Shown here: positions 8,163-37,885 of the stretch, piece by piece
Numbering within the stretch: position 1 is the first letter of the stretch
Layout of the letters: the number at the start of each line of letters is the position of its first letter
From: an uncultured Muribaculaceae bacterium
GTDB lineage: Bacteria; Bacillota_I; Bacilli_A; RF39; UBA660
DNA: 64,000 nucleotides
Assembly: GCA_964408085.1 (NCBI GenBank)
Contig: CAYOYB010000004.1
Location: forward strand, 1,057 to 65,056
Reading direction: 5' to 3'
Program-made: the position numbers and the translations under genes
The notes under the pieces: model-generated
What the model was told of the DNA's origin: nothing
The model's input: the letters and a program-made list of their open reading frames with translations, nothing else
Databases searched by the model: none

Positions 8163-8178
8163 TAAAAGGGGAAACGTT

Positions 8179-13941: not shown

Positions 13942-13954
13942 AAATTCACTTCCT

Positions 13955-14668: not shown

Positions 14669-14671
14669 ATT

Positions 14672-16894: not shown

Positions 16895-16918
16895 TTATAA
16901 TCACCACCAATACTGGTA

Positions 16919-19551: not shown

Positions 19552-19568
19552 TAGTTACCCCTCCCTTT

Positions 19569-21767: not shown

Positions 21768-21846
21768 TTATTACCACACCTCCCAAGGGCTATATTATTA
21801 TAGTATACCATATAATCTATTAACAATTCAATTATTTTAAGTATAA

Positions 21847-23904
21847 TTATTGTCCTTTTATATATTTATTTAACAATTCTAATCTTTCCTCAATATCATC
21901 AAGTTCTTTTTGCATTTCTTCTTGTTTTGAATATAACTCATCATATTTATCATATGTTTCTTGATTTATAACATCTGAGCCTTCACCACGAGCATTCATT
22001 TCACTAACATATTCTGCATAATTATCATAATGTTGCTCGAATGCTTTTTCAATATTACCTGGATTATCCTCAGAGGCCAAACTAAATGATAAATATTCTT
22101 GACCTTGTTTATACGAATCTTGTAAATTAGTTTGACGAGTTTCAAGTGCTGTTACTTCTGATTTCATATCATCAACAGACAAATCAGATATACCAGTTCT
22201 TCTTGCTTGGCGTTTCATACTACTTTCAGTTATACTAGCTGTAACATCACCAGATTTATAAGCACCTTTATTCTCAACTAATTTTTTAGCTGTTTTGTAC
22301 CCAGAACTTACACCACCAGCAACGATACTACCTGGAACTCTTAATACACTAATTGGAGCACCAGCTACATTCTTAATAGTAGAACCAAATACTCCCAATT
22401 TTCCAAAAAATCCGCTAGATTGAGCTAAATTTGTTTTAAAGTTTTTAATACTTCCTGAAGCATTTGAAAAACTAGTTTTCACATTTCTAATGTTTTCAGG
22501 AGTCGCCGCTATATTAGCAGCTGTTCCACCAATTGTAGAAATTCCAATAGCAGAAGCCCCAATAGCAAATTTTCCCACATCTTTAATTAAACTTAAAAAA
22601 CCATTCTCCTTATTTAAGTTAAATAAAGTACATAATAATTGTGGCATTTGGAAAGCAAACAAGAAAATACCAATTATAATAAATACATTTACCATTATTT
22701 CGTTCTTTGAAGCCGTACTTAATAACCATTTAAATAATAAAACTGAAAAAAATACTACTGCCAATCTAATAAACAATTGTAAATATGTTGTAATAGTTTC
22801 CTTAAGCCAACCATTAAATAATTTACTATCTTTAACATCAATATAAGATATAATTGGAATTGGTGAAATTACCTGTAAAAAAGCTAATTTAATGCATCTA
22901 ATCGCAATATTAACACAAATAATCACTAATAAGAACGTTACAAGTAACCCTACCAATGTAGCTAGGATAAAATGATACTCAAAAATAAAATCACCATCAG
23001 AATATGTCTCTGTTTCGGGATTACACGCATGACCATGTATACCACTATAAAATACTGGATCAGTTTCTATAGCTGTTACAATTTCCGCTGATAGCATAGT
23101 CGAAACAGATTTTTCATCTCTAGCCTTATTGATTAAATCATATACATATTTTCCGTCTCTAACACCACAATAATGCGTCCATTCTGGAAACATAGTAATA
23201 GCGGGATCCTTACCAGATTTGCAATTATAATATAAATCTCGACTATCAGGATAAACACCATTAGCATTTGGCACACCATAGGCAGCATTTCGTGTTGATG
23301 GATAATATAAATAATAAGCACATTTAGGCAATGTAGGGCATAATTCACCACCAGGAACTGGCACACAACAATACTTTAAATCGATTGCATTTGTTGACTT
23401 ATCTTCTTCTAAAAATATATTAGGGCAATCATCAAAAGCTAAAGCTAAAGGGCCAGAAACATTATAATCTAAAAAATTACTAAAAACTAAATAGCTAACT
23501 TCATCACTAATATTTTCGAGTTCTTTTTCACCAATTCTATTTCCAAGAACAATATTTCCAATAATATTATCACGCAAAATAATTCCTTGTAATTGATAAG
23601 CTTTTTCAAAAATTACAGGAACTGTAGGAATTAAAACTAAAGCAATAATAACTCTTTGAACTATTTTTATAGCTGATTGTTGTTTATCGGGATTAATAAT
23701 ATAATTAATTATAACTAAAGCTAATTTAAATAACATAAATAGACCAATTATACCGTATATACGCTCTATAATGTCATTAATATATTTATTCGCTATATTA
23801 ACATCAGCAAGTTGTAAAATTAGTGTATAAATTTTACTAATTAAATCAGCGATAAAAATATCTACTGAAGCAAATAAAGATCTAACACTAGATACAAAAT
23901 CCAT
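21847..23904 (-). CDS. VirB6-like polytopic T4SS membrane protein, paralog B
   Basis: 685 aa with the same architecture as paralog A. Shared blocks: LADxxL/I...GLFMxFKLAxxxIxYIxNPDK and SPxPIISYIxxKD...FNxWLKETIxTxLxLFIRL. Confidence 0.65.
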   Translation of the reverse strand: MDFVSSVRSLFASVDIFIADLISKIYTLILQLADVNIANKYINDIIERIYGIIGLFMLFKLALVIINYIINPDKQQSAIKIVQRVIIALVLIPTVPVIFEKAYQLQGIILRDNIIGNIVLGNRIGEKELENISDEVSYLVFSNFLDYNVSGPLALAFDDCPNIFLEEDKSTNAIDLKYCCVPVPGGELCPTLPKCAYYLYYPSTRNAAYGVPNANGVYPDSRDLYYNCKSGKDPAITMFPEWTHYCGVRDGKYVYDLINKARDEKSVSTMLSAEIVTAIETDPVFYSGIHGHACNPETETYSDGDFIFEYHFILATLVGLLVTFLLVIICVNIAIRCIKLAFLQVISPIPIISYIDVKDSKLFNGWLKETITTYLQLFIRLAVVFFSVLLFKWLLSTASKNEIMVNVFIIIGIFLFAFQMPQLLCTLFNLNKENGFLSLIKDVGKFAIGASAIGISTIGGTAANIAATPENIRNVKTSFSNASGSIKNFKTNLAQSSGFFGKLGVFGSTIKNVAGAPISVLRVPGSIVAGGVSSGYKTAKKLVENKGAYKSGDVTASITESSMKRQARRTGISDLSVDDMKSEVTALETRQTNLQDSYKQGQEYLSFSLASEDNPGNIEKAFEQHYDNYAEYVSEMNARGEGSDVINQETYDKYDELYSKQEEMQKELDDIEERLELLNKYIKGQ

Positions 23905-23932
23905 TTACATCACTCTTTCTAGCAAAAAACTA

Positions 23933-24280
23933 TTATAAACATGTTCCCCCATGATCTACACCAGATATATCTAAAATCCAGTCTAATAATAATGGTAAAA
24001 TAAATAAAATCACAATTGCAATTAATCTTTTAGCAAAATTTTGACCAGCTTTTTTCAAACTATCATCCTTACCACTAGTAATCGCTTTAAAAAAGTCTAG
24101 TATACCTAAAACTATCCCAATTGCTAAAGCAACCCATTTTACCATATCAAATAAATCTTTCAAAAATTCAGCAATATTTGAACCAACTACTTGTTTACAA
24201 TCAGTAGCTGCCATTATCCTTCCTGTTAAAGAAAAAAAAGAAAGGAAGAAAAACATAAATGTATTTTTAATTTTTTTCAT
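23933..24280 (-). CDS. VirB2/TrbC-like pilin-like protein, paralog P4 (with cleavable-looking signal peptide)
   Basis: Start moved to MKKIKNTF (ATG 24280, GGAGG RBS). Signal-like N-terminus ending IMAATDC. Core is GILDFFKAITSGKDDSLKKAGQNFAKRLIA between hydrophobic helices. Confidence 0.7.
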   Translation of the reverse strand: MKKIKNTFMFFFLSFFSLTGRIMAATDCKQVVGSNIAEFLKDLFDMVKWVALAIGIVLGILDFFKAITSGKDDSLKKAGQNFAKRLIAIVILFILPLLLDWILDISGVDHGGTCL

Positions 24281-24306
24281 ATAAGCCTCCAGCATTTCTC
24301 ATAATA

Positions 24307-24335
24307 ATTATACCATACAAAAAATAATAAAACAA
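24307..24335 (-). promoter_or_regulatory. candidate sigma-A promoter inside the cluster, upstream of P4
   Basis: On the - strand: TTGTTT, a 17-nt spacer ending in TGG, then TATAAT. It lies about 27 nt upstream of the P4 start codon. Confidence 0.5.
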
Positions 24336-24420
24336 TAAAAAGTAATTGAACTAAACCATCATATATGAATTAATAAAGCATTAAAAATATATAATATAAA
24401 AACTATTAAACCAATTTATT

Positions 24421-24455
24421 AAAAGCATTATAAAAGGATGATTTTTCATCATCCT
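24421..24455 (-). terminator. candidate intrinsic terminator/attenuator downstream of P5
   Basis: On the - strand, AGGAUGAU-GAAAA-AUCAUCCU (8-bp perfect stem) is followed by UUUAUAAUGCUUUU. It lies about 85 nt after the P5 stop, within a 243-bp intergenic gap. Confidence 0.45.
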
Positions 24456-24538
24456 CTATAATTAATTTCTTTGTCAAATTCATTATCTAGCAATTTTATC
24501 TGATAAAGAATTAAAATAATTCAAAAGTTAGTTTCAGT

Positions 24539-24895
24539 TTATTTTCCACAATCATTATTAACAAAACAATCGAAGCAACCCCAAAATTTATTATTTTCTG
24601 ATTTATCCCCACCAACTAATGAAACTACAAATTGAACCAATGAAACTACAAAGAATACCAAAACGGCAATAACTAATCTCTTAATTAATAATCCTTGATT
24701 TTTCTTTATATCATCTTCCTTTTGGGACATTACAGCTTTACCTAAATCTAGTAAACCAAAAAATACAACCATAATTGGAATAACTACTTTCATTATATTA
24801 ATTATTGTTGAAATAGAAGTAGGAAGAACAGTATCGAATTCTATTTCACCTCCACCACAACTAGTTGTTGCTAAAACATTAATTAAATCTGTCAT
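24539..24895 (-). CDS. VirB2/TrbC-like pilin-like protein, paralog P5
   Basis: 118 aa with a GGGAGG RBS. Core is GLLDLGKAVMSQKEDDIKKNQGLLIKRLVIA between hydrophobic helices. C-terminal tail is CFDCFVNNDCGK. Confidence 0.75.
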   Translation of the reverse strand: MTDLINVLATTSCGGGEIEFDTVLPTSISTIINIMKVVIPIMVVFFGLLDLGKAVMSQKEDDIKKNQGLLIKRLVIAVLVFFVVSLVQFVVSLVGGDKSENNKFWGCFDCFVNNDCGK

Positions 24896-24953: not shown

Positions 24954-25955
24954 TTAAAACAACCCCAATATTTTATTCTTTTTTGACATTTCCTCGTCAG
25001 TTTCAACTTCAAATCCTAATTTCAATAAAAATCTACTTAAAGCGTGAATGTTTCTTTCACGATCATCTAATGGTGGTAAATTATAATATACTTTAGATTT
25101 TGATTCATACTCAAATTCCAAAATATCCTTAGAACTTAATAAGCTCTTATTTAAAATTAACTTTTTCTCTTCTTTTTTTACTTTTGAAAATGCATTTCGA
25201 TCTAGCATCATTAATTTATTTAACTTAATAATTGATGGCTCTACTAAGCACAACACATCATTACATAAGCTTTCAGCCTGACGACTAGTATTAATATCAA
25301 TTAACGCAATATCTTTATCACTATATTTTACAATTGCATTACCAATATCATTACTAGTTGAATTAACCATATCCTTATCGTTAAAATAAATAAAATCACG
25401 TTTATCAACTTCAATAGCTACTACTGAATAATGTTTTGATAAAAGTTTTTTCATCATATATATTAAAGTTGAAGCCCCAGCTTGCTTAGTAAGATTTTTA
25501 ACTCCTATTACAATTGTTCCTCTACCTCTAGCATAAGTTTCTCCACTTTCACCATCATCATCATTTTTCTCTACTTCTAATTGATGAATATGAGCTACAT
25601 CACGATAAGTGTTTGGATGATTATATAAATACATAATACCTTCAGCATTTTTAGTAAAATTATAAATTCCCATCGAAATTAATTTAGATAAATACTCAGT
25701 TGAAGAACTTTCAATTGTATCATCTAAAAGTAAAATTACCTTTTCCATATCTAGAGCAATAGAAAGTTTTTGAAGATTTTTAATATCCTTATAATCCTTT
25801 ATTGCAGTTATATCTAAAATCATTCTTTGAAAATAAAAGTTTTGAAAAGTTGAAATAATTTCTTCTGCCTCAAATTCTCCATTCAAAGATTTAATTATAT
25901 CAATATCTAAACCTTGTAACATTGCATTATATTTGTTTGTTATAATTACGTTCAT
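24954..25955 (-). CDS. TadZ/CpaE-like protein (receiver-like N-domain + ParA/MinD-like domain with degenerate Walker A)
   Basis: 333 aa. The C-terminal half (IVIGVKNLTKQAGASTLIYMMKKLL...VVAIEVD...ALIDINTS) has a MinD/ParA layout but lacks the GKT lysine. Its position next to Tad-like genes supports the call. Confidence 0.5.
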   Translation of the reverse strand: MNVIITNKYNAMLQGLDIDIIKSLNGEFEAEEIISTFQNFYFQRMILDITAIKDYKDIKNLQKLSIALDMEKVILLLDDTIESSSTEYLSKLISMGIYNFTKNAEGIMYLYNHPNTYRDVAHIHQLEVEKNDDDGESGETYARGRGTIVIGVKNLTKQAGASTLIYMMKKLLSKHYSVVAIEVDKRDFIYFNDKDMVNSTSNDIGNAIVKYSDKDIALIDINTSRQAESLCNDVLCLVEPSIIKLNKLMMLDRNAFSKVKKEEKKLILNKSLLSSKDILEFEYESKSKVYYNLPPLDDRERNIHALSRFLLKLGFEVETDEEMSKKNKILGLF

Positions 25956-25967: not shown

Positions 25968-26462
25968 CTATTTATCTCCTAAATCATAAATAATACGTGT
26001 TTCACCATAAACAGGCAATTCTAATTGTGCTCCAATAACTGGTATATCAAAATACATAAAAGTCTTGACTCCATAATAATATCCGCGTTCTGATGGAAAA
26101 GCATAAATACAATAATGATAATTAGAATGTGAATTTAAAGTAATTCCACCTTTTTTTGATACACTTTCATCATCACAATTATTTTGTGACCAACCACCAT
26201 AGTTTGCCTTATAACCAATTTCTGATAATTCGCGATTTATTTGTTCTTCTAAATCGCTTCCCTCTAAATCAATCGGTTCTGGATTACCGTAAATATCTAC
26301 CTTAGTATTATATTCAGCATAAGCAGATACATAATGTAGAATTTTATTTTTTACTTTATTAGCCCTTGAATAATTAACAGCGGCAGTTAAAATAACCATC
26401 ATTAAAAAAGCAAATGCTAAAACTAAGCCAAATACAAAAGCATTTCCCATTGATTCTTTCAT
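25968..26462 (-). CDS. TadE-like pseudopilin / prepilin-like protein
   Basis: The N-terminus MKESMG|NAFVFGLVLAFAFLMMVIL is a short charged leader ending in Gly, followed by a hydrophobic helix. Paralogous to the next gene (C-terminal YFDIPVIGAQLELPVYGE vs YIDMPIIGDYFRIPVYGE). Confidence 0.6.
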   Translation of the reverse strand: MKESMGNAFVFGLVLAFAFLMMVILTAAVNYSRANKVKNKILHYVSAYAEYNTKVDIYGNPEPIDLEGSDLEEQINRELSEIGYKANYGGWSQNNCDDESVSKKGGITLNSHSNYHYCIYAFPSERGYYYGVKTFMYFDIPVIGAQLELPVYGETRIIYDLGDK

Positions 26463-26474
26463 TTAACCACATCC

Positions 26475-26945
26475 TTATTCAAGAGTATCAAAATAATTTG
26501 AGCAATAATTCCAAAAGCAGAAAACACGGTTACTTTCACCATAAACAGGTATTCTAAAATAATCACCAATAATTGGCATATCTATATATATATATGTTAC
26601 AACACCAAATTTAACATACTGCCCATTATGAGCACGTGTCTCTTCAGATTTTGCATATACACAAAACCAATAATCAGGATTTAAATCATCCATAGGCTGC
26701 ATACCACGGCGAAAATTGCAAGAACTTTTTGTATCAGTCTGATAACCTATACTATAAAGGTAATCATTAATACTTTGAGCTGAATTTTCGTTATAACCCT
26801 CATATTTTTCAATAGCATTTATAATTCTATTATTAGCTTTAAAGGCCTTAGAGTAACTCATGGTTCCAGCCAGAATAGCAAAAGTTATTGTAATAAAAAC
26901 AATTATAATATTATATAGTGCTATGCTACCAATACCTTCACGCAT
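26475..26945 (-). CDS. TadE-like pseudopilin / prepilin-like protein
   Basis: N-terminus MREGIG|SIALYNIIIVFITITFAILA. Paralog of 25968-26462. Confidence 0.6.
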   Translation of the reverse strand: MREGIGSIALYNIIIVFITITFAILAGTMSYSKAFKANNRIINAIEKYEGYNENSAQSINDYLYSIGYQTDTKSSCNFRRGMQPMDDLNPDYWFCVYAKSEETRAHNGQYVKFGVVTYIYIDMPIIGDYFRIPVYGESNRVFCFWNYCSNYFDTLE

Positions 26946-26983
26946 AAGTTACTCCTCCTTATTTTAAAACTTAAAATTATTTA

Positions 26984-27235
26984 TTATTCTGTTGCTGCAT
27001 CGCCTTTTCCAGAATTATTTAAACAAGTTTGATAACCAGTTTCATCAAAATCACTGCTACCATTTGCTGCTTGACAAGAATTACCTTTCCAAACACCACC
27101 TGCATCAGTACAACAAGTCCTATTAGCTGTTGATTTCATCAAGCTATTAATTAATGGAGTTACTACAGCAACAATAACACCGATTAAAATAATAGCAACA
27201 ACTGTTAAGTTTGCTTCTCCTGCTGCTTCTTTCAT
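26984..27235 (-). CDS. small Flp-like pilin candidate (major pilin of the Tad-like module)
   Basis: 83 aa. MKEAAG|EANLTVVAIILIGVIVAVVTPLI, followed by a 50-aa tail with 4 Cys. Has a strong RBS (AAGGTGGTGA) and its own promoter-like element. Confidence 0.6.
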   Translation of the reverse strand: MKEAAGEANLTVVAIILIGVIVAVVTPLINSLMKSTANRTCCTDAGGVWKGNSCQAANGSSDFDETGYQTCLNNSGKGDAATE

Positions 27236-27268
27236 TATTTCACCACCTTTAACTTATATACCATTTAT

Positions 27269-27298
27269 ATTATACCACATTTTAAAATGAATAATCAA
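27269..27298 (-). promoter_or_regulatory. candidate strong promoter directly upstream of the Flp-like pilin gene
   Basis: On the - strand: TTGATT, an 18-nt spacer ending in TGG, then TATAAT. It lies in the 66-bp gap between the TadC-like and pilin genes. Confidence 0.5.
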
Positions 27299-27301
27299 TA
27301 T

Positions 27302-28084
27302 TTAAAATTGCATCATCATCATCATTGCAAATAGCATTAATGCTAAGATTCCACCACCTGTAGCAAATAGCATTTGCATAGTCTTGTTTTCCATTTTTTC
27401 AAGACGATCTTTATATTTTTGTTCACGAGCCTTATTTTGTAAATTAGAAACTGTTTTCGAAAACATCAATAATTGTTCATGCTTATTTTCTTGGCTTCCT
27501 AAACCAAGTCTATATAAAAGACGCATCATACGCATTGAATCACGAACTGGATATTCTTTAGCAAAGTCCATATATGGATCAACCGAAGAATCACCCTCTT
27601 CAATTCTAGCAACCATTCTTTCTAAACCTGGTTTAAACATTTCTGGAGCAGTTGCTATACTTCTATTTAAAGCAACTGGAACAGTGTAATGTTGAATTAA
27701 TATTTCTAATCCCTTTAAATAATAAGGTAACATTAAATTGATTTTATATAAATTAGCATTATAAAATCTACGTAATTGTGTATATGGCATTTTAAATACT
27801 AAAAAACCTATAACTACTGCAAAAATGAAATATATAAAAGTAAATTTACTCAAGAATAAGAAAATGAAGAATATAATCACTAAAAGTCCATTTCTTACTC
27901 TAATTCCAAATAACTTATTTACATCAACATCATTTCCATATCTAATAGTTAGTAAAAACTTATAATCATCTTCCATCAAAAATCTAAAATAAGGTTCGGT
28001 ATCATTAACAAATTTTCTTGTATCAATCTTTTTATTATATTCCAATATAAATAAAATAATTATTGCTATAAATATAAAATTCAT
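27302..28084 (-). CDS. TadC-like (T2SS-F family) pilus platform membrane protein
   Basis: 260 aa. TM segments at the N-terminal third and the extreme C-terminus, with a helical cytoplasmic domain between. Tandem with a similar gene (ATGA overlap), immediately downstream of the TadA-like ATPase. Confidence 0.55.
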   Translation of the reverse strand: MNFIFIAIIILFILEYNKKIDTRKFVNDTEPYFRFLMEDDYKFLLTIRYGNDVDVNKLFGIRVRNGLLVIIFFIFLFLSKFTFIYFIFAVVIGFLVFKMPYTQLRRFYNANLYKINLMLPYYLKGLEILIQHYTVPVALNRSIATAPEMFKPGLERMVARIEEGDSSVDPYMDFAKEYPVRDSMRMMRLLYRLGLGSQENKHEQLLMFSKTVSNLQNKAREQKYKDRLEKMENKTMQMLFATGGGILALMLFAMMMMMQF

Positions 28085-28986
28085 TATTCACCACCTACAT
28101 TCTGATTATAATATTTTTCACCACTTAATAAGAAGAATGAATTAATAACTATGATTAAATGAAGTAAAACTTGAACCATCCAATTATCAAGTAATTTAAT
28201 ATAGGAACTTACGCCTAACATAAATTGTACCATCATAACAAGTAAATATAGAATAACACCAAATTGTAAAAATTTTTTATGAAATTGAGCTCTATCCATA
28301 CGATCTCGATAAACATTTTCAACAAGCATATCAATATCAAGAGACATATTTTCTAAAGCTTCACCAGAATCTTTACTACCTTCATTAGTAATTTGTAAGA
28401 ACAATTGATGCATATTTTTTACAATATAATAGTCATATTTTTCATTCATATATTCTAATGCTTGATCAATTGTACCATTTTCATAAGCCATACTAATCAT
28501 AAGTTCAACATCTGCTTTAACAGGATCTTCTAAAACTCCTGATTGTACAACACCTTCTAATGATTTAACAAAAGATTGAGTAACGGCAAATTCCATAATT
28601 GTATTTGTCGTATATACCTGGATTTGTTCAAAAATAAATTCACTATATATTCTTTTGCATCTTAAATAGGTTATATATGGAATAACAGAAACAGCAATTA
28701 ATGCATAAATAATGGAAATTACAATACTATAAAAATACATATAAGAAACCATAAATCCAAAAACTGCAAAAACTGTTATCTGAATTGCGTATTGTCTAGG
28801 TGTATAATCTTGGCCTAGCTCTTTAACCTTTTCTCTAATTATTTTAAATGAATATGGTGCAAATTTATCATAAATTAAGCCAATATTCTTAGTAATAAAT
28901 TTATAAACATTATTACCAACATTACGTCTATATATTACAATAAACGAAATTATTAGAGCTATCGCAATAAACATTATTGCATTCAT
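28084..28986 (-). CDS. TadB-like (T2SS-F family) pilus platform membrane protein
   Basis: 300 aa. Same layout as 27302-28084, directly following the ATPase gene. Confidence 0.55.
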   Translation of the reverse strand: MNAIMFIAIALIISFIVIYRRNVGNNVYKFITKNIGLIYDKFAPYSFKIIREKVKELGQDYTPRQYAIQITVFAVFGFMVSYMYFYSIVISIIYALIAVSVIPYITYLRCKRIYSEFIFEQIQVYTTNTIMEFAVTQSFVKSLEGVVQSGVLEDPVKADVELMISMAYENGTIDQALEYMNEKYDYYIVKNMHQLFLQITNEGSKDSGEALENMSLDIDMLVENVYRDRMDRAQFHKKFLQFGVILYLLVMMVQFMLGVSSYIKLLDNWMVQVLLHLIIVINSFFLLSGEKYYNQNVGGE

Positions 28987-29001
28987 AATATTCCTCCCCT
29001 A

Positions 29002-30159
29002 CTATTCTGCTAATATTTCAACATTATCACTAATTTTTGAAACATTTAAAGGTGCTACATTATTTAAATTAACATTTTGACTATTGTTAGAAACATATGT
29101 CTCACCACTTTTAATTATATCTTTTGGTAAAACAACACCCTGAGCATCTAGATAATCCAATAAATATTGACTTGGATTATTACGATAAACTTTTCCTTCG
29201 GTTGTTTTTCTATAGATTGTGTTATACTCAGCTTGATTATCCTTAGTTACATAAAATTCGGTTACTTCAGCAATTTCCCTTACAAATCTTTTAGTTGCTT
29301 TATCCTGATATCCTCTAATATAAACACCAATTTGAATATAACGATAAATAGACTTTAAAAATTGATCAATATCTTGATTAGTTTCAAGCAAACTATACAT
29401 ACGGTTAGGAATTGAAGCTGCTTTATCAGCATGGATAGTTGATAAAATATAGTGCCCTGAAGAAATTGAGTTTCGAACAGCCATAACAGCTTCAGCACTA
29501 CGTACTTCGGAAAGTAAAATCCACTTAGGATTCTGACGCATACAAGTTACTAAAACATCAGAATATGAAGCTATATTATTAGTCTTCATAGCTACAATAT
29601 CACGATGTGGGAAAATCCTATCCAAATGCAGTTCCAATGTATCCTCGATTGTAATAATTTTTTCGTTTTCTTTAGTCTTTGAAGCTAAATATTTAACAAA
29701 TTCAGTTTTACCAGAACCTGTTTCTCCACAAACAATTATATTACAATGACCTAAAACACATTGTTCCAAAAAATCATGAATATCTAACGTAATATAGTTT
29801 TCGTTTAAAATTTTCTCTTTCTCTAAACGAATTTTAGCAGGTGTTTTACGAACAACCACCGCAATTCCATTTTTAGCAATCGATTCATGAACAAAATTTA
29901 AACGTAATTCAGCACTTTCAGCATCCAAGAATGGATGAGCCATATTAAAGGTTTTACCCATAACATTTGAACATTGAAAGGCCAATTTTTCCATAAAAGC
30001 ATTGTTTATTGCGGGATTCTCAATTCTGAAAATACCACGCGACAAAGTTTTTAACCAAACTTGACCACCATTACTATATGAAACATCGGTAATATCATCT
30101 TCCAATAGATATTCGCGCAATGGGCCGAAATCTATTGAAGAAAACATATTATCATTCAT
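29002..30159 (-). CDS. TadA/CpaF-type (VirB11-superfamily) secretion ATPase
   Basis: 385 aa. Walker A is VCGETGSGKTEF. Asp box IITIEDTLELH, Walker B WILLSEVRSAEA and His box LSTIHADKA. Confidence 0.85.
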   Translation of the reverse strand: MNDNMFSSIDFGPLREYLLEDDITDVSYSNGGQVWLKTLSRGIFRIENPAINNAFMEKLAFQCSNVMGKTFNMAHPFLDAESAELRLNFVHESIAKNGIAVVVRKTPAKIRLEKEKILNENYITLDIHDFLEQCVLGHCNIIVCGETGSGKTEFVKYLASKTKENEKIITIEDTLELHLDRIFPHRDIVAMKTNNIASYSDVLVTCMRQNPKWILLSEVRSAEAVMAVRNSISSGHYILSTIHADKAASIPNRMYSLLETNQDIDQFLKSIYRYIQIGVYIRGYQDKATKRFVREIAEVTEFYVTKDNQAEYNTIYRKTTEGKVYRNNPSQYLLDYLDAQGVVLPKDIIKSGETYVSNNSQNVNLNNVAPLNVSKISDNVEILAE

Positions 30160-30161
30160 AA

Positions 30162-30989
30162 TTACTCACCAAGATTATTATCATCAAGATTATTATCAGT
30201 GTTGTCAGTAGGAGTTTCATCAATTACAACTGTATGTGCATTAATAAAATCTCTTAAATATTGTGTACTAACTTCTGTAACTAATTCTTCATCATCAATT
30301 GTCGTTCCATGTGGAACTGGGAATAAAACTACAGATTTACTTGATAAATAACTAGCTTTTCTTAGTAATATATGTAAATCTTCAGTTACACCAAAATATA
30401 AATAAGCTGGAGTTCTTTTTGAACTCATATCTTCAAAAACATTATTTCCTGATGAATCTTTTACAGCTAAAACTTGAATATTTTCCAATAATCTACCAAC
30501 CATGATTTCTCCATTATCATCAACAGCCTTCATATAGATATCTACATAGCTGTCTGGAACAATTGAGTTACCATAAGTAGTAGCCATACTTACAGGAAAG
30601 TTATATGGAATTTCTCCCTCTTTAATATTAGTAAATAAAGCATCTGGCATATCATCAGCACTAACAACTACTCCACTATAGAACATACTACCAGCTGGAA
30701 TTACAGTATTAATTGCTGAATATTTACCAACAATTGACCCTTCAGATCTAATAACGTTTTCTGAAACTGCAACAGATGGAATGCTAACATATTTAATCAT
30801 ATCTTTAGTAATCAAAGTTCTAGGTTGAATTGTTACCTTTGCAGTTGGAATCCTTACAGGACTAGTAGCTTTTTTAATTTGTGAATTATAACCAAAATAG
30901 ATAATCGCAATTACAAGAATTACTCCTAATATTGTGACAGTATTTTTGTTTGTAAAAAATCTTTTTATAGAAATTATAATATTATTCAT
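30162..30989 (-). CDS. CpaB/RcpC-like pilus assembly protein (N-terminal TM + SAF-like domain)
   Basis: 275 aa. A TM helix (VTILGVILVIAIIYFGY) followed by VTIQPRTLITKDMIKYVSIP...GKYSAINTVIPAGSMF, the usual CpaB pattern. Confidence 0.6.
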   Translation of the reverse strand: MNNIIISIKRFFTNKNTVTILGVILVIAIIYFGYNSQIKKATSPVRIPTAKVTIQPRTLITKDMIKYVSIPSVAVSENVIRSEGSIVGKYSAINTVIPAGSMFYSGVVVSADDMPDALFTNIKEGEIPYNFPVSMATTYGNSIVPDSYVDIYMKAVDDNGEIMVGRLLENIQVLAVKDSSGNNVFEDMSSKRTPAYLYFGVTEDLHILLRKASYLSSKSVVLFPVPHGTTIDDEELVTEVSTQYLRDFINAHTVVIDETPTDNTDNNLDDNNLGE

Positions 30990-31016
30990 ATTTTTTCCTC
31001 TCTTCCTTCTTTTTTA

Positions 31017-31418
31017 TTAATAAGGTGTCTCTAATATAGCATCAAGTGTATTCGTTAAATCAAATGAAATTATTTCATTAGTTATACTAGAATTTAAGCT
31101 ACTAGACACTCGCACACTAACCTTAGGTGGTTCTTCATTAATATCCACTATATCAATTTTATATGTTCTAGATAAATTTGCATTTTCTGCAAAACGACGA
31201 TAAAAATTTTCAATAAATTTTTCCGCATCAATCCTAATCTCTCCAGTTGTATGATAAGTAGGTAAATCAAATGCATCGTACATCGCAGCTTCAGTAGTTT
31301 CCTTTAATAAAGTATAATTATGTTCTTCTGTATTGGTCAAGGATTGGAATAGATAGATAAAGAAAATCATCAATATTCCTACACCTACAACCAAAATTCC
31401 CCAAAACGATTCCTTCAT
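31017..31418 (-). CDS. prepilin-like/pseudopilin-like protein
   Basis: 133 aa. N-terminus MKESFWG|ILVVGVGILMIFFIYLF has the same leader pattern as the other three prepilin-like ORFs. Confidence 0.5.
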   Translation of the reverse strand: MKESFWGILVVGVGILMIFFIYLFQSLTNTEEHNYTLLKETTEAAMYDAFDLPTYHTTGEIRIDAEKFIENFYRRFAENANLSRTYKIDIVDINEEPPKVSVRVSSSLNSSITNEIISFDLTNTLDAILETPY

Positions 31419-31430: not shown

Positions 31431-34400
31431 TTATCTAGTCTTTAAAATATCACTAAATCTATCATCATTAGTAATTTTAATAGAAAAATTTCCACCATAA
31501 CTAACGGCAATATTTTCTAATTCTTCATGGATAAATAAACTATATCCTCCACCATAAGTACCTGGTGAATTGCTTGGATAAATAAGTGTACCCTTTAAAT
31601 AATCGCCATCCATGCTATCATGATTGTCTTTTCTAATTTCTTTAATTGCTGCTGGTGTTAATGTTAGACTATATAAAGGTTCTAAAGAATAAACTCCCAT
31701 ACCATTAGCACCTCTATTTTCTGTAATTATAGACTCTTTCCCACTCCAATTTTTACCTGGAATTCTTGAACTACCATCAGCGCCTGGGAAAGGATTATCT
31801 AAGTCAATTAATCGATAAATAACATTTAATCCTGCAACATCTCCACATTCTGGAACTGGCTTACCATCAACTATGCATTCACCATAATCACCAATATCAT
31901 CATCATCGTCATCATCACAAGGTGGATCTACACATATTCCATCATCATCGTCATCATCACAAGGTGGATTTACACATATTCCATCATCATCAGGTGACGC
32001 TATAATTCTATTTTTAACAACAAAACGACAAATACCATATGGGTCACCATATATACATTCCCCGCCAGTACATTCCTCTATACCTAAATCATCAACAATT
32101 GTATCAAAATGACCTTCACCGTTTTCATCAACACTTCCTAAAATCCAATATTTTAAACCAATAGGATATAAACCAGAGCCATTCATAAATTCTACAGACA
32201 ATGTTCCATCTGGTAATTCTTGATAATTATTATATGTTTCTTTAAAACTTTTATATGAAACTTCTCTTACGCATGAACAAGAGCCATCGTCTCCTCTATC
32301 TCTTACTTCACCATCTTTGCATATACAAGCATTTATTTTTTCATTTAATCGATATAAATCAGAAGTTGATATATAGCTAACATAAACTGTATTCCATAGT
32401 TCTTTTGAAGAATAATCAAATGGAGGGCCAGCCTCTATAAATCCTGAACATCTACTAAAGCTATCTACATTCAACATTTTTACATTACCAAAAGCATAAC
32501 GATTACCTAAATCAGCATTAGGATCAACTGGTTTTACTGCACCAGCTCCACAAACACCTTCGTAATCTTCTGTCGCACCAGGAACCCACGAAGCATCATT
32601 AATTAAACAGGTTATACCATCATCACGTTCAGACATAGTAAACACATGTTCTGTGTTACATTCATCATTATTGTCTACACATGCATAATTTACGCCAAAC
32701 CCACCAGCACCATTAATCTTTTCAATATCAGTAGGAGTAGAATAAGTATGCACATCAAATAGTGTTTGATATTCTAATTCTATATTCATATCCAAAAGAA
32801 TATTACCAGATTGATGGCATTCTAAAACATTATTAAATATTTCCGCTGTTTTTGGAGAAAAGCCTTCTACATTAGCCTTATAATTAGCTAAATGTTCTTC
32901 ACAAACTTGAACTTGTGATTTAACAAAATGCTGACCAAGCGAACCACAAGAAGGACTATAAGCAGTACCTCCTATAAAAGCATACCAATGTTGAGCATCT
33001 TTACCAGTTAACTCCTTTGTGCACACATAGTTAGGTTTCCAACCACATATATATTGTTCTGAATGAGTATGACCATTTTGATCTGTGACTGACTTTGTAC
33101 AGTATATAGGGCATTGACCAGCTTGACCAGCTTCTATACAAACACTAGTAGGAGCACAATGATCTTCATATTCGCTCGCATAAGCATTACAATTCGCAAA
33201 ATCTCCATCTGTAACTGGTTGTACCCCCCATTTGTCATTACAAGTCAAATTTGCTAAATCAGCAGCAGCATCCCTAGCAGCCTTACTATATTCCTGATAA
33301 TTATCAATAGCTTTATCCAAATCAATATCAACGGCACAAATTTTTGCCCCAGTAGCTTTAGCAATATCATTTTCTGAATCTTTAATTGTCCATTTGAAAT
33401 ATCTACCAGCTTCTACATAAGGATAATTATCTGGCAAATCAACTTCAAAAACTTCTTGGCAATGAATTTTACAATAGTCATTTATTTTAGTTGAATAACG
33501 AGCATCATTTGAATAAGCCACAGCTAAAAAAGTATTATCAGAAAAATCATTAGCGATGTTCATTACCCAATCTGCTGGTAGCTTTCCATCAACAATTGCT
33601 TTTTCAATTTTTTCTGTAGTATTATATTGTGCAAATTGTCCACCACTACTATTAAATACACCATCTCTAAAATAAGACGTATTATTTGTATTATCATCAT
33701 CACAATAATTTACAATAATTTCTGGTTCTAGATTTGGCACACTACAATTAGTTTTATTTCCACAATACTCTTCAAACAAATCCTGTTTATCTGCCCAATA
33801 GTCACTGTACGATTTTCTTTCAGTTCCATCACAAATTGGAACTCCTGTATCCTCACAGCAAGAATCAATAGCTGATGGTATACAGCATGGTTTACAATAT
33901 AGTTCAAAGAAATCTTGTTTATCTTCCCAATATTTCTCTGCAGGCTCACAAGCTTCTACTGTACCATCTTCACTTATATCACCAGTTTCATAACAGCAAT
34001 AAGGATCATCTGGATGAAAATTATCACCAGCATTTGTTACACAAGCTTCATATTCTCTATAATCGGTGTAATCTTCTGGTTTGCCACATGGCACACAACA
34101 TCCTTTTGGTTCATCACAATTTTTTGCAGCCTTTCCAAGCCATACTAATTGCATAGAAGATCCCCATGGATTTCCATTGCTGTCTTTAGCCTTACCAGCA
34201 AATATATCCATTCTGTTAGAAGGCTCATTCCCCGCATTATTGCTAGTAGGTTGTGAAGTAAAATATGCATATATTGAACCATTCGATTTAAGTTGATATT
34301 TCAACGAATCATTATCTTCTTGATTAGTAAGATACATATTTATCAAATTTCGATATACTGAACCACCAAAATTATTTTTATATGTATTTGTACTTATTTC

Positions 34401-35066
34401 ACCAGCAGCATGAGATGCAGCGAAAAAGTTAGCAGCTTCTGTACCAGAAAAAACATAATATACATAATTATCATCATGCATTCTAACCAACGGTTCAATC
34501 AATACATACGTCTTTTTTAATTCTTCGCACTCATTATTTTCTACATATTTGCAAACATCAAATCCAACATCATTTAAAAAATCTGGGTTCTTACATGAAT
34601 CTCCATTGACCTCCCTATCGATAATATTCTCTAAGGTAATATGTTTTGTACTCCAACTTCCTGTACCCGCACCACTGATATGATTTGCATCATATAGCAA
34701 ATTTCCTACTGCATCAGTTCCATAAGTGTATGGGCCAAAATTCTGCAATGGTGTATAGCCAAGACCACCTTGATTTACAATGGCCGTCTTATATGTAGCA
34801 CCAGGCATTTGTTTGATTGTAGATGAAGAAAATGAAGACTGCCAATAGTCAATTGTTCTTTCTGACTTTCTATTTCCATTTTCATCAACTACAGTAATAC
34901 GAACACCATAATCACCATCGCCAGAAATACGAAGTCCTGTACTAACATTGGTAGTTGTTCCACCTGTTATAGCATTACCATTACTATCAACATCCACATC
35001 CGCCTTTACAGCAAATGGTATCACTAATAAAATTATTAATATTATGTTATAAAAAACTTTTTTCAT
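31431..35066 (-). CDS. 1211-aa secreted Cys-rich protein (candidate pilus-associated adhesin/tip protein)
   Basis: Signal peptide MKKVFYNIILIILLVIPFAVKA|D. I count 52 Cys, often as CC, CxC or CxxC. There is a duplicated motif YWEDKQDFFELYC / YWADKQDLFEEYC and a tandem GICV(N/D)PPCDDDDDD repeat. Confidence 0.75.
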   Translation of the reverse strand: MKKVFYNIILIILLVIPFAVKADVDVDSNGNAITGGTTTNVSTGLRISGDGDYGVRITVVDENGNRKSERTIDYWQSSFSSSTIKQMPGATYKTAIVNQGGLGYTPLQNFGPYTYGTDAVGNLLYDANHISGAGTGSWSTKHITLENIIDREVNGDSCKNPDFLNDVGFDVCKYVENNECEELKKTYVLIEPLVRMHDDNYVYYVFSGTEAANFFAASHAAGEISTNTYKNNFGGSVYRNLINMYLTNQEDNDSLKYQLKSNGSIYAYFTSQPTSNNAGNEPSNRMDIFAGKAKDSNGNPWGSSMQLVWLGKAAKNCDEPKGCCVPCGKPEDYTDYREYEACVTNAGDNFHPDDPYCCYETGDISEDGTVEACEPAEKYWEDKQDFFELYCKPCCIPSAIDSCCEDTGVPICDGTERKSYSDYWADKQDLFEEYCGNKTNCSVPNLEPEIIVNYCDDDNTNNTSYFRDGVFNSSGGQFAQYNTTEKIEKAIVDGKLPADWVMNIANDFSDNTFLAVAYSNDARYSTKINDYCKIHCQEVFEVDLPDNYPYVEAGRYFKWTIKDSENDIAKATGAKICAVDIDLDKAIDNYQEYSKAARDAAADLANLTCNDKWGVQPVTDGDFANCNAYASEYEDHCAPTSVCIEAGQAGQCPIYCTKSVTDQNGHTHSEQYICGWKPNYVCTKELTGKDAQHWYAFIGGTAYSPSCGSLGQHFVKSQVQVCEEHLANYKANVEGFSPKTAEIFNNVLECHQSGNILLDMNIELEYQTLFDVHTYSTPTDIEKINGAGGFGVNYACVDNNDECNTEHVFTMSERDDGITCLINDASWVPGATEDYEGVCGAGAVKPVDPNADLGNRYAFGNVKMLNVDSFSRCSGFIEAGPPFDYSSKELWNTVYVSYISTSDLYRLNEKINACICKDGEVRDRGDDGSCSCVREVSYKSFKETYNNYQELPDGTLSVEFMNGSGLYPIGLKYWILGSVDENGEGHFDTIVDDLGIEECTGGECIYGDPYGICRFVVKNRIIASPDDDGICVNPPCDDDDDDGICVDPPCDDDDDDDIGDYGECIVDGKPVPECGDVAGLNVIYRLIDLDNPFPGADGSSRIPGKNWSGKESIITENRGANGMGVYSLEPLYSLTLTPAAIKEIRKDNHDSMDGDYLKGTLIYPSNSPGTYGGGYSLFIHEELENIAVSYGGNFSIKITNDDRFSDILKTR
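31899..31982 (-). repeat. 42-nt perfect-but-one tandem duplication inside the Cys-rich gene
   Basis: 31899-31940 and 31941-31982 are identical except for one position (c/t at 31928/31970). They encode GICVNPPCDDDDDD and GICVDPPCDDDDDD. Confidence 0.9.
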
Positions 35067-35078
35067 TTTTTCACCCCC

Positions 35079-35546
35079 CTATGAGCAAGTCATTCCTTCT
35101 CCAATATAATAATCAACTGTATAATTGATATTAAAATTGTCATTACTATCGCAGAAATTCAAATAAAAAGGTTCAATTTCTAATAATTTTTCTTTATTGA
35201 TTTTTGAGAAATCAATTGTTAATTCTATATTAAGTTCATTATTAGATATATTGTCACTATATTCAAATCCATCAATTTCTTTAAATTTTTCAAAGTAGCT
35301 TTGTTTATAAGTTTGCATATTTTCTAATGTTGTGACATTATCACTTGAATACTTTTCTGTTCTTGTATACTTAATTAACTTATCAGAACTTGATTCAAAA
35401 TTATACTTAACATCATAAGTATAATCTTCATTAATAGCTTGATGTGAACATTGATGAGATTTAATTTCCTCTTTTTTACTACAACCACATCCACTAATAA
35501 ATAATGCTAATACTAGGAAATTAAGAACAATTATTGCTTTTTTCAT
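35079..35546 (-). CDS. small lipoprotein, function unknown
   Basis: 155 aa with lipobox LFISGCGC. Tightly packed upstream of the Cys-rich gene. Confidence 0.6.
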   Translation of the reverse strand: MKKAIIVLNFLVLALFISGCGCSKKEEIKSHQCSHQAINEDYTYDVKYNFESSSDKLIKYTRTEKYSSDNVTTLENMQTYKQSYFEKFKEIDGFEYSDNISNNELNIELTIDFSKINKEKLLEIEPFYLNFCDSNDNFNINYTVDYYIGEGMTCS

Positions 35547-35560
35547 TTTTTCACCCTTTT

Positions 35561-36208
35561 CTAAAATCCAAATGTATCTTTCTTATAATGAACAATTTTA
35601 ATAATTATTATTATAATTGCTATTCCAATTGCGATATATAATCCATACATACTTATAAAACTCATTGCCAAATCTATAACACTAATTTCTTTATTAATTT
35701 TAGAATCATCTATAATTCCATTTTTTTCTTTATAGTCATTAACTTTCTTTATGAATTCATTCCTTGATAATGAATGTGACACCCATTTTTGACACAATTC
35801 AAATTCTTTAGCATTATCACATACACTTAATTTATAAAAAGGATTGTATGTAGGTGTTGTTGCATATAAACTACCAACGTTTTGATTAATACAAGAATTA
35901 GTCCCATAAAAATTAAATGTATAGCTTTGCCCATCAGAATAATTATTTAAAACTATTTCATTATTAACTAAATCATAAGTTCGATAAATATTACCAAACG
36001 GATCTCTAAAATAAAGTTCTGGATTCAAATTGCTAAATTTAATTGAAAATACTGCATTATCTTGAACCATCTGATAATCATAACTAACATTAATATTAGA
36101 TATAATTTTTTTTAATCTTGCTTTATCTGTAGAAGAACAAGATGCATAAACACTATTAGGAAATAAACATAATAATATTAAAATAAGTATATATTTAAAT
36201 TGCTTCAT
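35561..36208 (-). CDS. secreted protein with C-terminal TM anchor, function unknown
   Basis: Start moved to MKQFKYIL (ATG 36208, GAGGTGGA RBS). Signal peptide ending VYASC and a C-terminal helix YGLYIAIGIAIIIIIIKIV. Confidence 0.55.
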   Translation of the reverse strand: MKQFKYILILILLCLFPNSVYASCSSTDKARLKKIISNINVSYDYQMVQDNAVFSIKFSNLNPELYFRDPFGNIYRTYDLVNNEIVLNNYSDGQSYTFNFYGTNSCINQNVGSLYATTPTYNPFYKLSVCDNAKEFELCQKWVSHSLSRNEFIKKVNDYKEKNGIIDDSKINKEISVIDLAMSFISMYGLYIAIGIAIIIIIIKIVHYKKDTFGF

Positions 36209-36277
36209 TAAACATTTCCACCTCAATTATATTATATATTTTCTTCAAAATCAACAAAAATCAACATTATTTACATT

Positions 36278-37885
36278 TTAAATAACTTTATAGACATAAA
36301 TATAATCACGAACTTTTAAAGTTAATGATAATTCTTGAGCATTTTCTACTTCTTTAATAAGTTCAAGATAATAAGTATTATCTTCATTAAGTCTTATTGA
36401 TTTAACATTTTTTAATATAGAATTATCTTTCTTTTCTGTGCCATCAATAGTATAAGAAAATGAACCATATAAACTAATAAAATTATATAAATTTGTTGTT
36501 TTGCTTCTAGCAACATTTTCATCCCAAGAAATTGTACCATTAACTTTAAGAAGAGTTTTATCATAGTTATTAATAATAGATGGTTTTAAATATTCAATTG
36601 AAGGGTAACAATCGTTTTCACTAACACAGAAGTTATAATCCAGTTTAAACATTTCACTTATATTTTGTTCATTAATTGTAAATTGTGTTTTCTCTAAAAT
36701 ACTGCCACCAAAATCAATTGTTTCTCCTAATTTATATTCCTTTGTTGCTTTTACTTGATCTAAATTTCTTGTTACAATTCCAACATTTATAGTTTTTGCT
36801 TCTGTACTAGATACACTACCACTACTATCAACATATCTAAAAGTCATTTTTTTATCAACATCATTTTTATCAATAGGATAAATAAGCAAATATTTTATAA
36901 ATTGATTATTTATATATTCATTATTATAACCGTTACCTATATCTACAAATTTATCTATATAAGTACTATCATGATAATATTTATTATATCCAACAATCAA
37001 TTCTGGTCTAGCCAAATTAAGTTGTTTTGCTGTTTTACCATTAGTCTTTATAGTAACTTCTAAAATAACAAAAGACTTATTTTCAGAAATTTTGTTACCT
37101 TTGTAATCTAGATTAGTTATATAAGTGTTACTAATTGCCATCGTAAAATCACGAGTAGTAAAAAAATCAGTTTGCGTATATTTTTTACTATATACACCTA
37201 AACTTAAATAAACAATTAAACAAATAATACTAACTGATAAAGAACTAATAAAGAAAAACAAATAACGGTTTTCAACATAAAAATATTTTAAAAATCTTTT
37301 ACTTTTATTAACACCTCTATGAACTCTATCAACATCAATTTCAACATTAAACTCAAATTCTTCATTATCTTCTTCTACTATTTCTAAATCTTTTAAATCT
37401 TCTTTAAAATTAAATTTTTTAATATCAAATCCTAACGCTCTTATGCCATATAGAATAATAGTAATAGCTTGAGCCATACTAATTACGACTAAAAAATCTC
37501 TAACATTTCTTAAAACCTTAGGATCAACGATTTTTATTTCCATATCACCTACTACACTATAAGAATAGGCAATTAAAATAAACGCAATTACATAAGCAAT
37601 AATCGTCCAAATATATAATTTAATAGATTTTTGTTTCATTAACAATAGAAAAATTACTATTAAAGTAAAAATGATAACAGCAAAAATTGCCAAATATATA
37701 TATATATCATATAAAAATTCGGTAGGGTTAGTAGATAAAACTCCCGTGTAACTAGATATAGCTATATCAAAAAAATTAATAATACGACTAAAACGATATA
37801 TAATATATACCATTAATAAAGTTAAAATCAAATGAATTAGTTTAAAATGCTTAATCAAAATTTTATATGGTTTTCTTAATATCAC
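36278..37885 (-). CDS. first gene of the cluster: membrane protein (about 5 N-terminal TM helices, one central TM, large C-terminal extracytoplasmic domain)
   Basis: 535-aa ORF with a GTG start as listed (start uncertain). No catalytic motif recognised. Confidence 0.55.
   Translation of the reverse strand: MILRKPYKILIKHFKLIHLILTLLMVYIIYRFSRIINFFDIAISSYTGVLSTNPTEFLYDIYIYLAIFAVIIFTLIVIFLLLMKQKSIKLYIWTIIAYVIAFILIAYSYSVVGDMEIKIVDPKVLRNVRDFLVVISMAQAITIILYGIRALGFDIKKFNFKEDLKDLEIVEEDNEEFEFNVEIDVDRVHRGVNKSKRFLKYFYVENRYLFFFISSLSVSIICLIVYLSLGVYSKKYTQTDFFTTRDFTMAISNTYITNLDYKGNKISENKSFVILEVTIKTNGKTAKQLNLARPELIVGYNKYYHDSTYIDKFVDIGNGYNNEYINNQFIKYLLIYPIDKNDVDKKMTFRYVDSSGSVSSTEAKTINVGIVTRNLDQVKATKEYKLGETIDFGGSILEKTQFTINEQNISEMFKLDYNFCVSENDCYPSIEYLKPSIINNYDKTLLKVNGTISWDENVARSKTTNLYNFISLYGSFSYTIDGTEKKDNSILKNVKSIRLNEDNTYYLELIKEVENAQELSLTLKVRDYIYVYKVI

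Follow-up and report, generated by a model that had tools for sequence, protein, structure and literature searches.

RF39 is a widespread, uncultured order of human and animal gut bacteria with a reduced genome and many auxotrophies (PMC6784871), and a literature search on RF39 pili or type IV secretion systems (T4SSs) found no description of either. Here, we analyze a 64,000-nucleotide (nt) stretch of an RF39 genome (GenBank assembly GCA_964408085.1, contig CAYOYB010000004.1; henceforth termed the window), in which four small genes encode proteins with a shared, short charged N-terminus that runs directly into a hydrophobic helix. The genes are co-operonic with a secretion ATPase, and their layout and context suggest that a monoderm Tad-like (type IVc-like) system, strongly diverged within the type IV filament superfamily, is encoded at a conserved chromosomal locus of RF39-like Bacilli.

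Four small proteins share an N-terminal motif

All four genes are encoded on the minus strand. The gene for a protein of 83 amino acids (aa) (26984-27235; N-terminus MKEAAG/EANLT, with the slash placed behind the Gly) is followed by those for a 156-aa candidate minor pilin (26475-26945; MREGIG/S) and its 164-aa paralog (25968-26462; MKESMG/N). The fourth gene, for a 133-aa protein of the DUF5411 family (31017-31418; MKESFWG/I), is the first of the presumed assembly block. An earlier sequence-only reading of the window had quoted these N-termini as class III, prepilin-like signals. The quotations are exact and no longer start is possible, as each open reading frame (ORF) begins at the first start codon after a stop; a Shine-Dalgarno sequence lies 5-9 nt before the ATG of each gene. 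A scan of all six frames, covering every ATG, GTG and TTG start in the window, for the pattern M-[KR]-[EQD]-x(2-3)-[GAS] followed by a hydrophobic 19-mer returned exactly four hits, which are these four genes, and the shared motif therefore exceeds chance. Mean Kyte-Doolittle hydropathy across the 19 residues after the Gly is 2.4-2.6, and all four proteins carry a short basic leader that ends in a small residue (Gly) directly before the helix.

For comparison, we used a one-genome-per-species collection with 513 confirmed matches to the ATPase gene of the locus. Ortholog counts (64-78 loci per gene) were drawn from 80 related loci, the best 80 of these 513 matches (76-98% identical). Nearly all of the 80 come from metagenome-assembled genomes (MAGs) labelled uncultured Bacilli, 'Tenericutes', 'Mollicutes' or Acholeplasma sp. 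CAG:878, and their hosts are the RF39-type gut lineage. Two loci from Bacilli MAGs, L084 and L087, represent a second lineage. Orthologs of the 83-aa protein read MKEA[AST]GEAN[LM]T almost without change, with Gly6 in 62/64 and Ser in the other two (L005, L016). At the 156-aa position, Gly6 is found in 60/65 orthologs and Glu or Gln at residue 3 in 55/65; at the 164-aa position, the figures are 44/64 for Gly6 (Ala in 9, Ser in 6, Asn in 3) and 56/64 for Glu3. Among the best 150 representatives of the DUF5411 family at 50% identity, Met1 is present in 150, Lys or Arg at residue 2 in 134, Glu3 in 113 and Ser or Ala in 133, followed by a hydrophobic residue, Trp6 (134) and Gly7 (123; Ala in 7, Thr in 5, Ser in 3). 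The L084/L087 lineage likewise keeps the motifs (MKEATGELNMT, MRESMGGSW and MKEASWGY). Strong constraint thus acts on the length of the leader and on the small residue; Gly predominates without being invariant, most of its replacements being Ala or Ser. The sequence-only reading had regarded conservation of the Gly and of the leader in orthologs as decisive for its proposal, and both are indeed strongly conserved, although the Gly is not strictly so. Its class III-like layout also stands, comprising a short polar start, a small residue and about 20 hydrophobic residues, all deeply conserved and co-operonic, whereas the name 'prepilin' was derived from that layout.

A candidate major subunit with a variable four-cysteine head

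Residues M1, K2, E3, A4, E7, N9, T11, C42, G46 and C71 of the 83-aa protein are invariant in an alignment of orthologs, and G6, P27, C41 and C54 are conserved in at least 90%. The first 11 residues are near-invariant in 64 loci, more so than the helix after them. This helix contains a conserved Gly19 and Pro27, and the C-terminal head carries a CC...C...C arrangement of four conserved Cys around the only variable stretch of the protein. The eight-residue spacing of Gly19 and Pro27 is also that of Gly14 and Pro22 in type IVa pilins. Searched against 177,635 PDB sequences, the 83-aa profile found as its best hit the alpha1-N helix of PilE1 (8pfb_G), a Firmicute type IV pilin, in a sub-threshold and partly compositional match (E 0.042). 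The alignment register places P27 on P22 and G19 on position 14, by which residues 1-5 of the 83-aa protein would be 'extra', i.e., N-terminal to residue 1 of a mature pilin.

Inside the operon, the 66-nt gap upstream of the 83-aa gene holds a promoter-like site (27269-27298, minus strand) composed of TTGATT, an 18-nt spacer and the extended -10 element TGgTATAAT. The 90 nt upstream of the 83-aa start contain a TA[TAC]AAT box in 56/63 loci and the extended form TGnTA[TAC]AAT in 49/63, for an overall pattern of TTGAnn-17/18-TGnTATAAT; over the whole region, promoter-like sites are not above shuffled expectation. Together, its own conserved promoter, the Gly/Pro-kinked helix and the variable four-Cys head make the 83-aa protein, as judged from its sequence, the likely major subunit.

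A paralogous pair and a DUF5411 protein

The 156- and 164-aa proteins are 26% identical over their full length (pairwise E 1e-18), and the block Y.D.P.IG...PVYGE appears in their alignment, in agreement with the paralogy proposed by the sequence-only reading. Two paralogs of this type are found in 64/65 loci. The 156-aa protein has 149 homologs, all unnamed and without Pfam domains, and the invariant residues of the family include G6, C76 and C95. An AlphaFold2 (AF2) model of this protein (pLDDT 86) consists of a helix at residues 4-47, a second helix at residues 53-66, and three strands.

The assignment of the 133-aa protein to DUF5411 (PF17424) was absent from the earlier reading and was found here. 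The match is strong (E 2e-52; 177 bits against a cut-off of 30) and covers 1-132 of the 134 positions of the hidden Markov model (HMM), i.e., the protein is a full-length member. Its AF2 model (pLDDT 80) shows a helix at residues 2-48 and three strands. Common to both models is an N-terminal helix of roughly 45 residues, joined by one or two short helices and a sheet of three strands. Of the lollipop pilin fold envisaged in the earlier reading, these two models show a helix-plus-sheet outline, and no solved pilin was matched. Homology between the 156/164-aa family and DUF5411 was considered and rejected, as hhalign aligns the first 25 residues only, with 1% probability.

An exhaustive HMMER search grouped the DUF5411 family into 559 clusters at 50% identity. 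In nearly all of 150 listed representative hits, the domain begins at residue 1 of the protein, and many homologs carry C-terminal extensions of 100-1500 aa (Big_2, dockerin, or Cys-rich), up to 1664 aa.

The genes form a Tad-like block

Related loci show a fixed gene order. At the head are genes for a 535-aa polytopic protein, a 221-aa anchored secreted protein, (a lipoprotein), and a secreted Cys-rich protein of about 1000-1200 aa. Then follow the DUF5411 protein, a CpaB/RcpC-like protein, an ATPase of the T2SSE family, and polytopic proteins of 300 and 260 aa; the 83-, 156- and 164-aa proteins and a 333-aa cytoplasmic protein come next. From the fourteenth position onward, the order continues with two PF18895 T4SS pilins, two VirB6/TrbL proteins, a VirB3-like protein, VirB4, an M23 hydrolase, and VirD4. 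In gene order and content, the block from the DUF5411 gene to the 333-aa gene corresponds to a monoderm Tad locus, with only the ATPase and, weakly, CpaB recognizable.

All genes of this block lie on the minus strand. The CpaB/RcpC-like bitopic protein (30162-30989) matches TIGR03177 (E 1e-10) and PF16976 (E 2.6e-5) with scores under the curated cut-offs (41 bits against 71, and 24.6 bits against 28.8). The ATPase (29002-30159; PF00437, E 1e-27) belongs to the T2SSE superfamily of TadA/CpaF/VirB11-like secretion ATPases. Its best NCBIfam models are VirB11 (9e-33; 113.6 bits, cut-off 250) and the TadA-family model TIGR03819 (9e-28; 97 bits, cut-off 373), and both scores fall below what an equivalog-level assignment demands. 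At the TadB position, the 300-aa polytopic protein (28084-28986) has about five transmembrane (TM) segments and an internal soluble helical region of about 125 aa; it is 63-96% identical across loci, and searches found no T2SSF, PDB or mutual profile match. By its topology, the 260-aa protein (27302-28084) occupies the TadC position, with a weak T2SSF match in 2/24 orthologs (best E 0.048) and no PDB match. Homology of the two polytopic proteins to one another, or to GspF/PilC structures in the PDB, was not detected. From position and topology, we infer that they form a TadB/TadC-like platform. The 333-aa cytoplasmic protein (24954-25955), conserved in 59 loci, stands at the TadZ position and contains a degenerate ParA-/Walker-A-like 'GVKNLTKQAGAST' segment; it gave no Pfam, NCBIfam or PDB match and has no HMM-detectable ParA/MinD domain. 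Its position and a reading of its sequence suggest a TadZ role, possibly as a pseudo-ATPase.

In L084 and L087, the Tad-like block and its ATPase are present without T4SS genes beside them, so that the block is a module in its own right rather than a T4SS sub-assembly of the VirB11 kind. The module in this lineage has two CpaB copies and only one 156-like gene. It is preceded by a gene for a 538-548-aa protein with a C-terminal sortase domain (L084, 3143-4759; L087, 3448-5094) in place of the 535-aa protein.

Neighboring genes and chromosomal setting

The upstream genes (31431-37885, minus strand), whose order is kept in the loci, encode the 535-aa protein, the 221-aa protein, a DUF1307 lipoprotein, and a 1211-aa protein. 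The N-terminus of the 535-aa protein (36278-37885, minus strand), MILRKPYKILIKHF, is highly conserved. This protein, with five TM segments by prediction and an extracellular domain of about 300 aa, belongs to no known family and stands at the cluster head in 66-68 loci. The 221-aa protein is secreted and C-terminally anchored. Directly upstream of the DUF5411 gene lies that of the 1211-aa secreted Cys-rich protein (31431-35066, minus strand), which carries poly-Asp and 'GICVxPPC' repeats near its C-terminal third. Although conserved, this protein evolves fast (30-54% identity); it may be an adhesin associated with the pilus. A relationship to the C-terminal extensions of DUF5411 fusions was also considered, and BLASTP found no similarity.

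Directly downstream of the Tad-like module is a complete T4SS module of the monoderm type (11749-24895, minus strand) with VirD4, the M23 hydrolase, VirB4, the VirB3-like protein, two TrbL/VirB6 proteins, and two VirB2-like PF18895 pilins, in the same order as in RF39-like loci. No relaxase was seen in the 64-kb window. Relaxase-less T4SSs with VirB2-like arrays are described in Patescibacteria (PMC12102498), a parallel to the RF39 block that suggests, by analogy, a core, non-conjugative role. A second trio of PF18895-like genes lies on the opposite strand (6884-9027, plus). Elsewhere on the plus strand, three paralogous membrane or secreted proteins with Tim44-like domains are encoded (51796-52818, 52835-53428, and 57143-58006), two of which have a near-identical signal peptide followed by a 'KADSGFDSS' segment.

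The window has a G+C content of about 27% and is chromosomal, since housekeeping genes (smpB, the RNase R gene rnr, scpA/scpB-like genes, and gatA of gatCAB) flank the locus; a D-Ala-D-Ala carboxypeptidase gene is also present. Near-identity DNA searches of plasmid and phage collections with the locus gave no match, and none of the RNA runs checked for expression carried the window sequence. In a close strain (L085, 10088-19711), an island with a serine recombinase and a D5 primase is inserted beside smpB, at the edge that corresponds to the start of the window; it is strain-specific and probably an integrated mobile element.

Search for a prepilin peptidase

The sequence-only reading had noted that no peptidase of the TadV/PilD type is recognizable in the window. 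We can confirm this: in Pfam, 39 ORFs of the window, among them each predicted membrane protein that reaches 90 aa, gave no match to Peptidase_A24 or a relative. No GxGD or GxHD motif was present in 19 polytopic ORFs of the 80 loci that have no counterpart in the window, and scans of ten of these identified transporters, BacA, FtsX, GtrA or Rce1-like proteins. Within 10 kb on either side of the two sister-lineage loci, no A24 gene was found. A walk outward from the window ends in search of a peptidase led to the recombinase/primase island on one side and to a 2.4-kb contig on the other. The same reading had alternatively suggested an unrecognized peptidase within the cluster, an idea that gained no support from the 535-aa protein, which was rejected as a hidden peptidase: it has no Pfam match, its sequence in the window contains no GxGD-like motif, and its predicted TM segments are poorly conserved. 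Nor does it share homology with the sister-lineage protein that carries a sortase domain. The two membrane proteins encoded after the ATPase, for their part, resemble TadB/TadC in topology. In Bacillus subtilis, comC lies apart from comG. According to Denise et al. (PMC6668835), a prepilin peptidase is 'sometimes shared between systems', and every MSH locus lacks one; in Bifidobacterium, tadV consistently lies outside the Tad cluster, and 12 species are reported to have Tad loci but no tadV (PMC13091076). Given such shared or distantly encoded enzymes, the local absence of a peptidase is real, yet ordinary, and carries little weight. Tad loci without a peptidase may represent a wider unsolved issue.

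Comparison with known systems

The closest parallel is the Tad/Flp (type IVc) system of monoderms, as in the Bifidobacterium breve tad locus and the TANB77 cluster (PMC11680825). Common to both are a small major subunit followed by two pilin-like paralogs (flp-tadE-tadF), a short TadA/CpaF-like ATPase followed by two polytopic proteins, a CpaB-like protein, a protein at the TadZ position, the lack of a secretin, and the absence of the peptidase from the locus, as in Bifidobacterium (PMC13091076). The RF39 locus differs in that the Flp motif G/xxxxEY, matches to the Flp_Fap and TadE HMMs, and a TadV in the window or related flanks are all absent. Its platform and TadZ-position proteins are undetectable by HMM, a DUF5411 component is added, and a block of T4SS genes is physically joined to the module. 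The candidate RF39 major subunit, with its four-Cys head and Gly/Pro-kinked helix, is more type IVa-like.

Miller et al. (2022; PMC9523054) predicted a DUF5411 'secretion-related operon' in Roseburia, Ruminococcus and Eubacterium from co-occurrence only. This operon brings a DUF5411 protein together with a large surface protein, an ATPase of the CpaF type, and a membrane protein that resembles PilC/GspF, and its remaining genes are unannotated. The composition is similar to that of the RF39-like locus, which differs by its host (Bacilli) and the adjoining T4SS. That study contains neither a shared N-terminal motif nor a pilin reading of DUF5411 nor the question of a peptidase. Related Tad-like clusters with unannotated pilin-like genes have been reported from Clostridia (PMC9523054, PMC11680825), and the shared N-terminal signature is absent from the accounts of monoderm Tad systems and of the systems in both of these studies.

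Resemblances to other type IV filament systems are more partial. The Com pseudopilus (ComGC-GG, ComC) also uses a very short leader with an acidic residue and an unlinked peptidase gene, and its minor pilin ComGG has no Glu5. However, the RF39 ATPase scores 81 bits against a ComGA cut-off of 300, no ComGB-type platform is present, and the RF39 proteins have neither a G/FTLxE motif nor an N_methyl HMM match. Archaeal class III signals, the substrates of PibD, FlaK and EppA, resemble the RF39 N-termini in dispensing with Glu5, in a variable +1 residue, in Gly, Ala or Ser at -1, and in the small size of the pilins. They normally place Lys or Arg at -2, whereas the four RF39 proteins have Ala, Ile, Met or Trp there and carry their basic residue at position 2. 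The archaeal Epd pili are proposed ancestors of Tad. Finally, DUF5411 homologs, many of which place large grafted domains behind an N-terminal helix and a small domain, recall the modular type IV pilins PilB and PilC of Streptococcus sanguinis. DUF5411, a putative filament component, has no sequence or fold likeness to their pilin modules.

A proposed divergent Tad-like pilus and its alternatives

The reading that we favor, at roughly even probability, is that the four proteins carry a class III signal cut after the small residue by an A24 peptidase encoded outside the locus, followed by ATPase-driven polymerization into a fibre of the 83-aa protein. In this scheme, M-K/R-E-x-x-(x)-G would be the short signal, with the Lys holding the N-terminus in the cytoplasm, and the peptidase would cut after Gly or, in a minority of cases, after Ala or Ser. 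Helix-first extrusion of the subunits into a pilus would then depend on the ATPase, the pair of proteins at the platform positions, CpaB, and the protein at the TadZ position. As the major subunit, the 83-aa protein would bear a tiny variable head with disulfide bonds. Low-abundance minor or priming pilins would be provided by the two paralogs of 156 and 164 aa and by the DUF5411 protein, and DUF5411 in other lineages might serve as a pilin module bearing large grafted, adhesin-like domains. A24 enzymes tolerate Ala and Ser at -1, as studies of PilD, FlaK and PibD have established, and similarly short leaders are known from type IVa pilins (MKAQKG) and B. subtilis ComGC (MNEKG). The Ala/Ser substitutions, the constant leader length of 5-6 residues, one of them basic, and the Pro register accordingly favor cleavage. 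Further support comes from the specificity and conservation of the motif, the helix-plus-sheet outline of the AF2 models, the paralogy of the 156- and 164-aa proteins, the T2SSE ATPase and the CpaB-like protein in the operon, the strict gene order, and the conserved promoter of the 83-aa gene, as well as from the start of the DUF5411 domain at residue 1 and its modular C-terminal grafts, as in known modular pilins or TadG-like proteins.

Several observations weigh against this interpretation. Residue +5 after the Gly is Thr, Phe, Tyr or Gly in the four proteins, as the sequence-only reading had correctly stated, and not the expected Glu; in the 83-aa protein, a Glu is found at +1 instead. A few orthologs have Asn, Thr, Ile or Leu in place of the Gly, there is no Lys or Arg at -2 of the kind seen in archaeal signals, and M-K-E-[SA] is as conserved as the mature part, which is odd for a leader to be discarded. 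The AF2 models of the 156-aa and DUF5411 proteins keep the Gly inside a continuous helix. Foldseek searches with these two models found no solved pilin, the best PDB hits (E 0.08-0.09) being unrelated folds, and PDB profile searches with the 156/164-aa and DUF5411 families were empty. In Pfam and NCBIfam, none of the four proteins matched N_methyl (PF07963), Flp_Fap (PF04964), TadE (PF07811) or Tad (PF13400) at E<=1, and no sequence or structure match of the proteins to solved pilins fell below E 0.04. The platform roles of the 300- and 260-aa proteins carry no firm HMM or PDB match, and an A24 enzyme in RF39 is itself a postulate, the window and related flanks having yielded none. We thus use 'pilin-like' as a well-motivated designation drawn from layout and context, short of family membership.

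Some of these observations would be explained if the subunits were assembled uncleaved, or 'leaderless', with M-K/R-E retained. Glu3, along with Glu7 in the major subunit, would then neutralize charge in place of the Glu5 of canonical pilins, and no peptidase would be needed. Glu3 is the sole acidic residue common to all four families, three of which have no acidic residue after the Gly, and the conservation of the first 11 residues of the major subunit above that of its helix is readily understood if they are kept. An AF2 helix that passes through the Gly points the same way, as does the variation of this residue: two orthologs of the major subunit have Ser, and Asn, Thr, Ile or Leu occur in orthologs of the other proteins. 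So does the absence of an A24 peptidase from the window, from 10 kb on either side of the 80 loci, and from the two other-lineage loci, along with the 12 Bifidobacterium species with Tad loci reportedly without tadV (PMC13091076). However, substitutions by small residues fit a cleavage site better, the register of Pro27 on Pro22 leaves about five residues beyond a mature pilin, and the peptidase absence concerns local regions only. To our knowledge, there is also no precedent for a type IV filament subunit that is assembled with an uncleaved charged N-terminus. We consider this scenario unlikely overall. Similarly doubtful is its broader form, in which RF39-like Bacilli and the wider DUF5411-bearing Firmicutes would represent a peptidase-independent filament branch, with M-K-E replacing the cleaved N-terminus and Glu5, or a branch whose cleavage relies on a peptidase of a new family.

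Alternatively, some or all of the 156-aa, 164-aa and DUF5411 proteins might be bitopic parts of the machine, akin to PilN/PilO or GspL/GspM, and not filament subunits. Their helix would be a permanent signal-anchor, the M-K/R-E-x-x-G tail would dock to the ATPase, the platform or the TadZ-position protein, and only the 83-aa protein, or else the PF18895 proteins, would form a fibre. PilN/PilO-type proteins indeed share this layout, with a short, conserved N-terminus in the cytoplasm, a single TM segment that runs on as a long helix, and a small alpha/beta domain. The lack of likeness to any solved pilin is compatible with the idea, but the structures of PilN, PilO and GspM are not matched either. 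In the 156- and 164-aa proteins, the TM segment leads into basic residues, and the DUF5411 gene stands at the head of the machinery genes, apart from the 83-aa gene; with its large C-terminal domains, DUF5411 would also be workable as a plain anchor for surface display. Set against this are the same motif on the 83-aa protein, which is too small for anything but a subunit, the location of the two paralogs directly behind the major-subunit gene, as with TadE/TadF after flp, and invariant Cys pairs in the extracellular domains. On balance, we regard a role of these proteins as bitopic machine parts as improbable. A new, non-A24 peptidase inside the cluster seems very improbable indeed. The candidates would be the 535-aa polytopic protein, a conserved protein of no known function that heads the cluster in 66-68 loci, and the 538-548-aa sortase-domain protein at the corresponding position in L084 and L087. 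Yet the 535-aa protein shows, in its window sequence, neither a Pfam match nor a GxGD-like motif and has poorly conserved predicted TM segments, the two proteins are not homologous, and the motif is kept in both lineages despite their differing upstream genes. Moreover, sortases act on C-terminal sorting signals, not on N-termini.

Implications

The 513 ATPase matches and the same gene order in the best 80 loci indicate that the machine is probably central to the RF39 lifestyle. Possible roles of the Tad-like pilus that we favor include attachment to partners or mucus and uptake of DNA or nutrients. Defined subunits would provide surface antigens and handles for the enrichment or imaging of an uncultured clade, while the defined signal offers a pattern by which hundreds of pilins and DUF5411 proteins now listed as 'hypothetical' could be sought and annotated. 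The system may also serve as a test case for how far a class III signal can drift, given its lack of Glu5 and its acidic, conserved leader, and for whether a prepilin peptidase is always required, a question whose interest would rise sharply if closed RF39 genomes truly carry no A24 peptidase.

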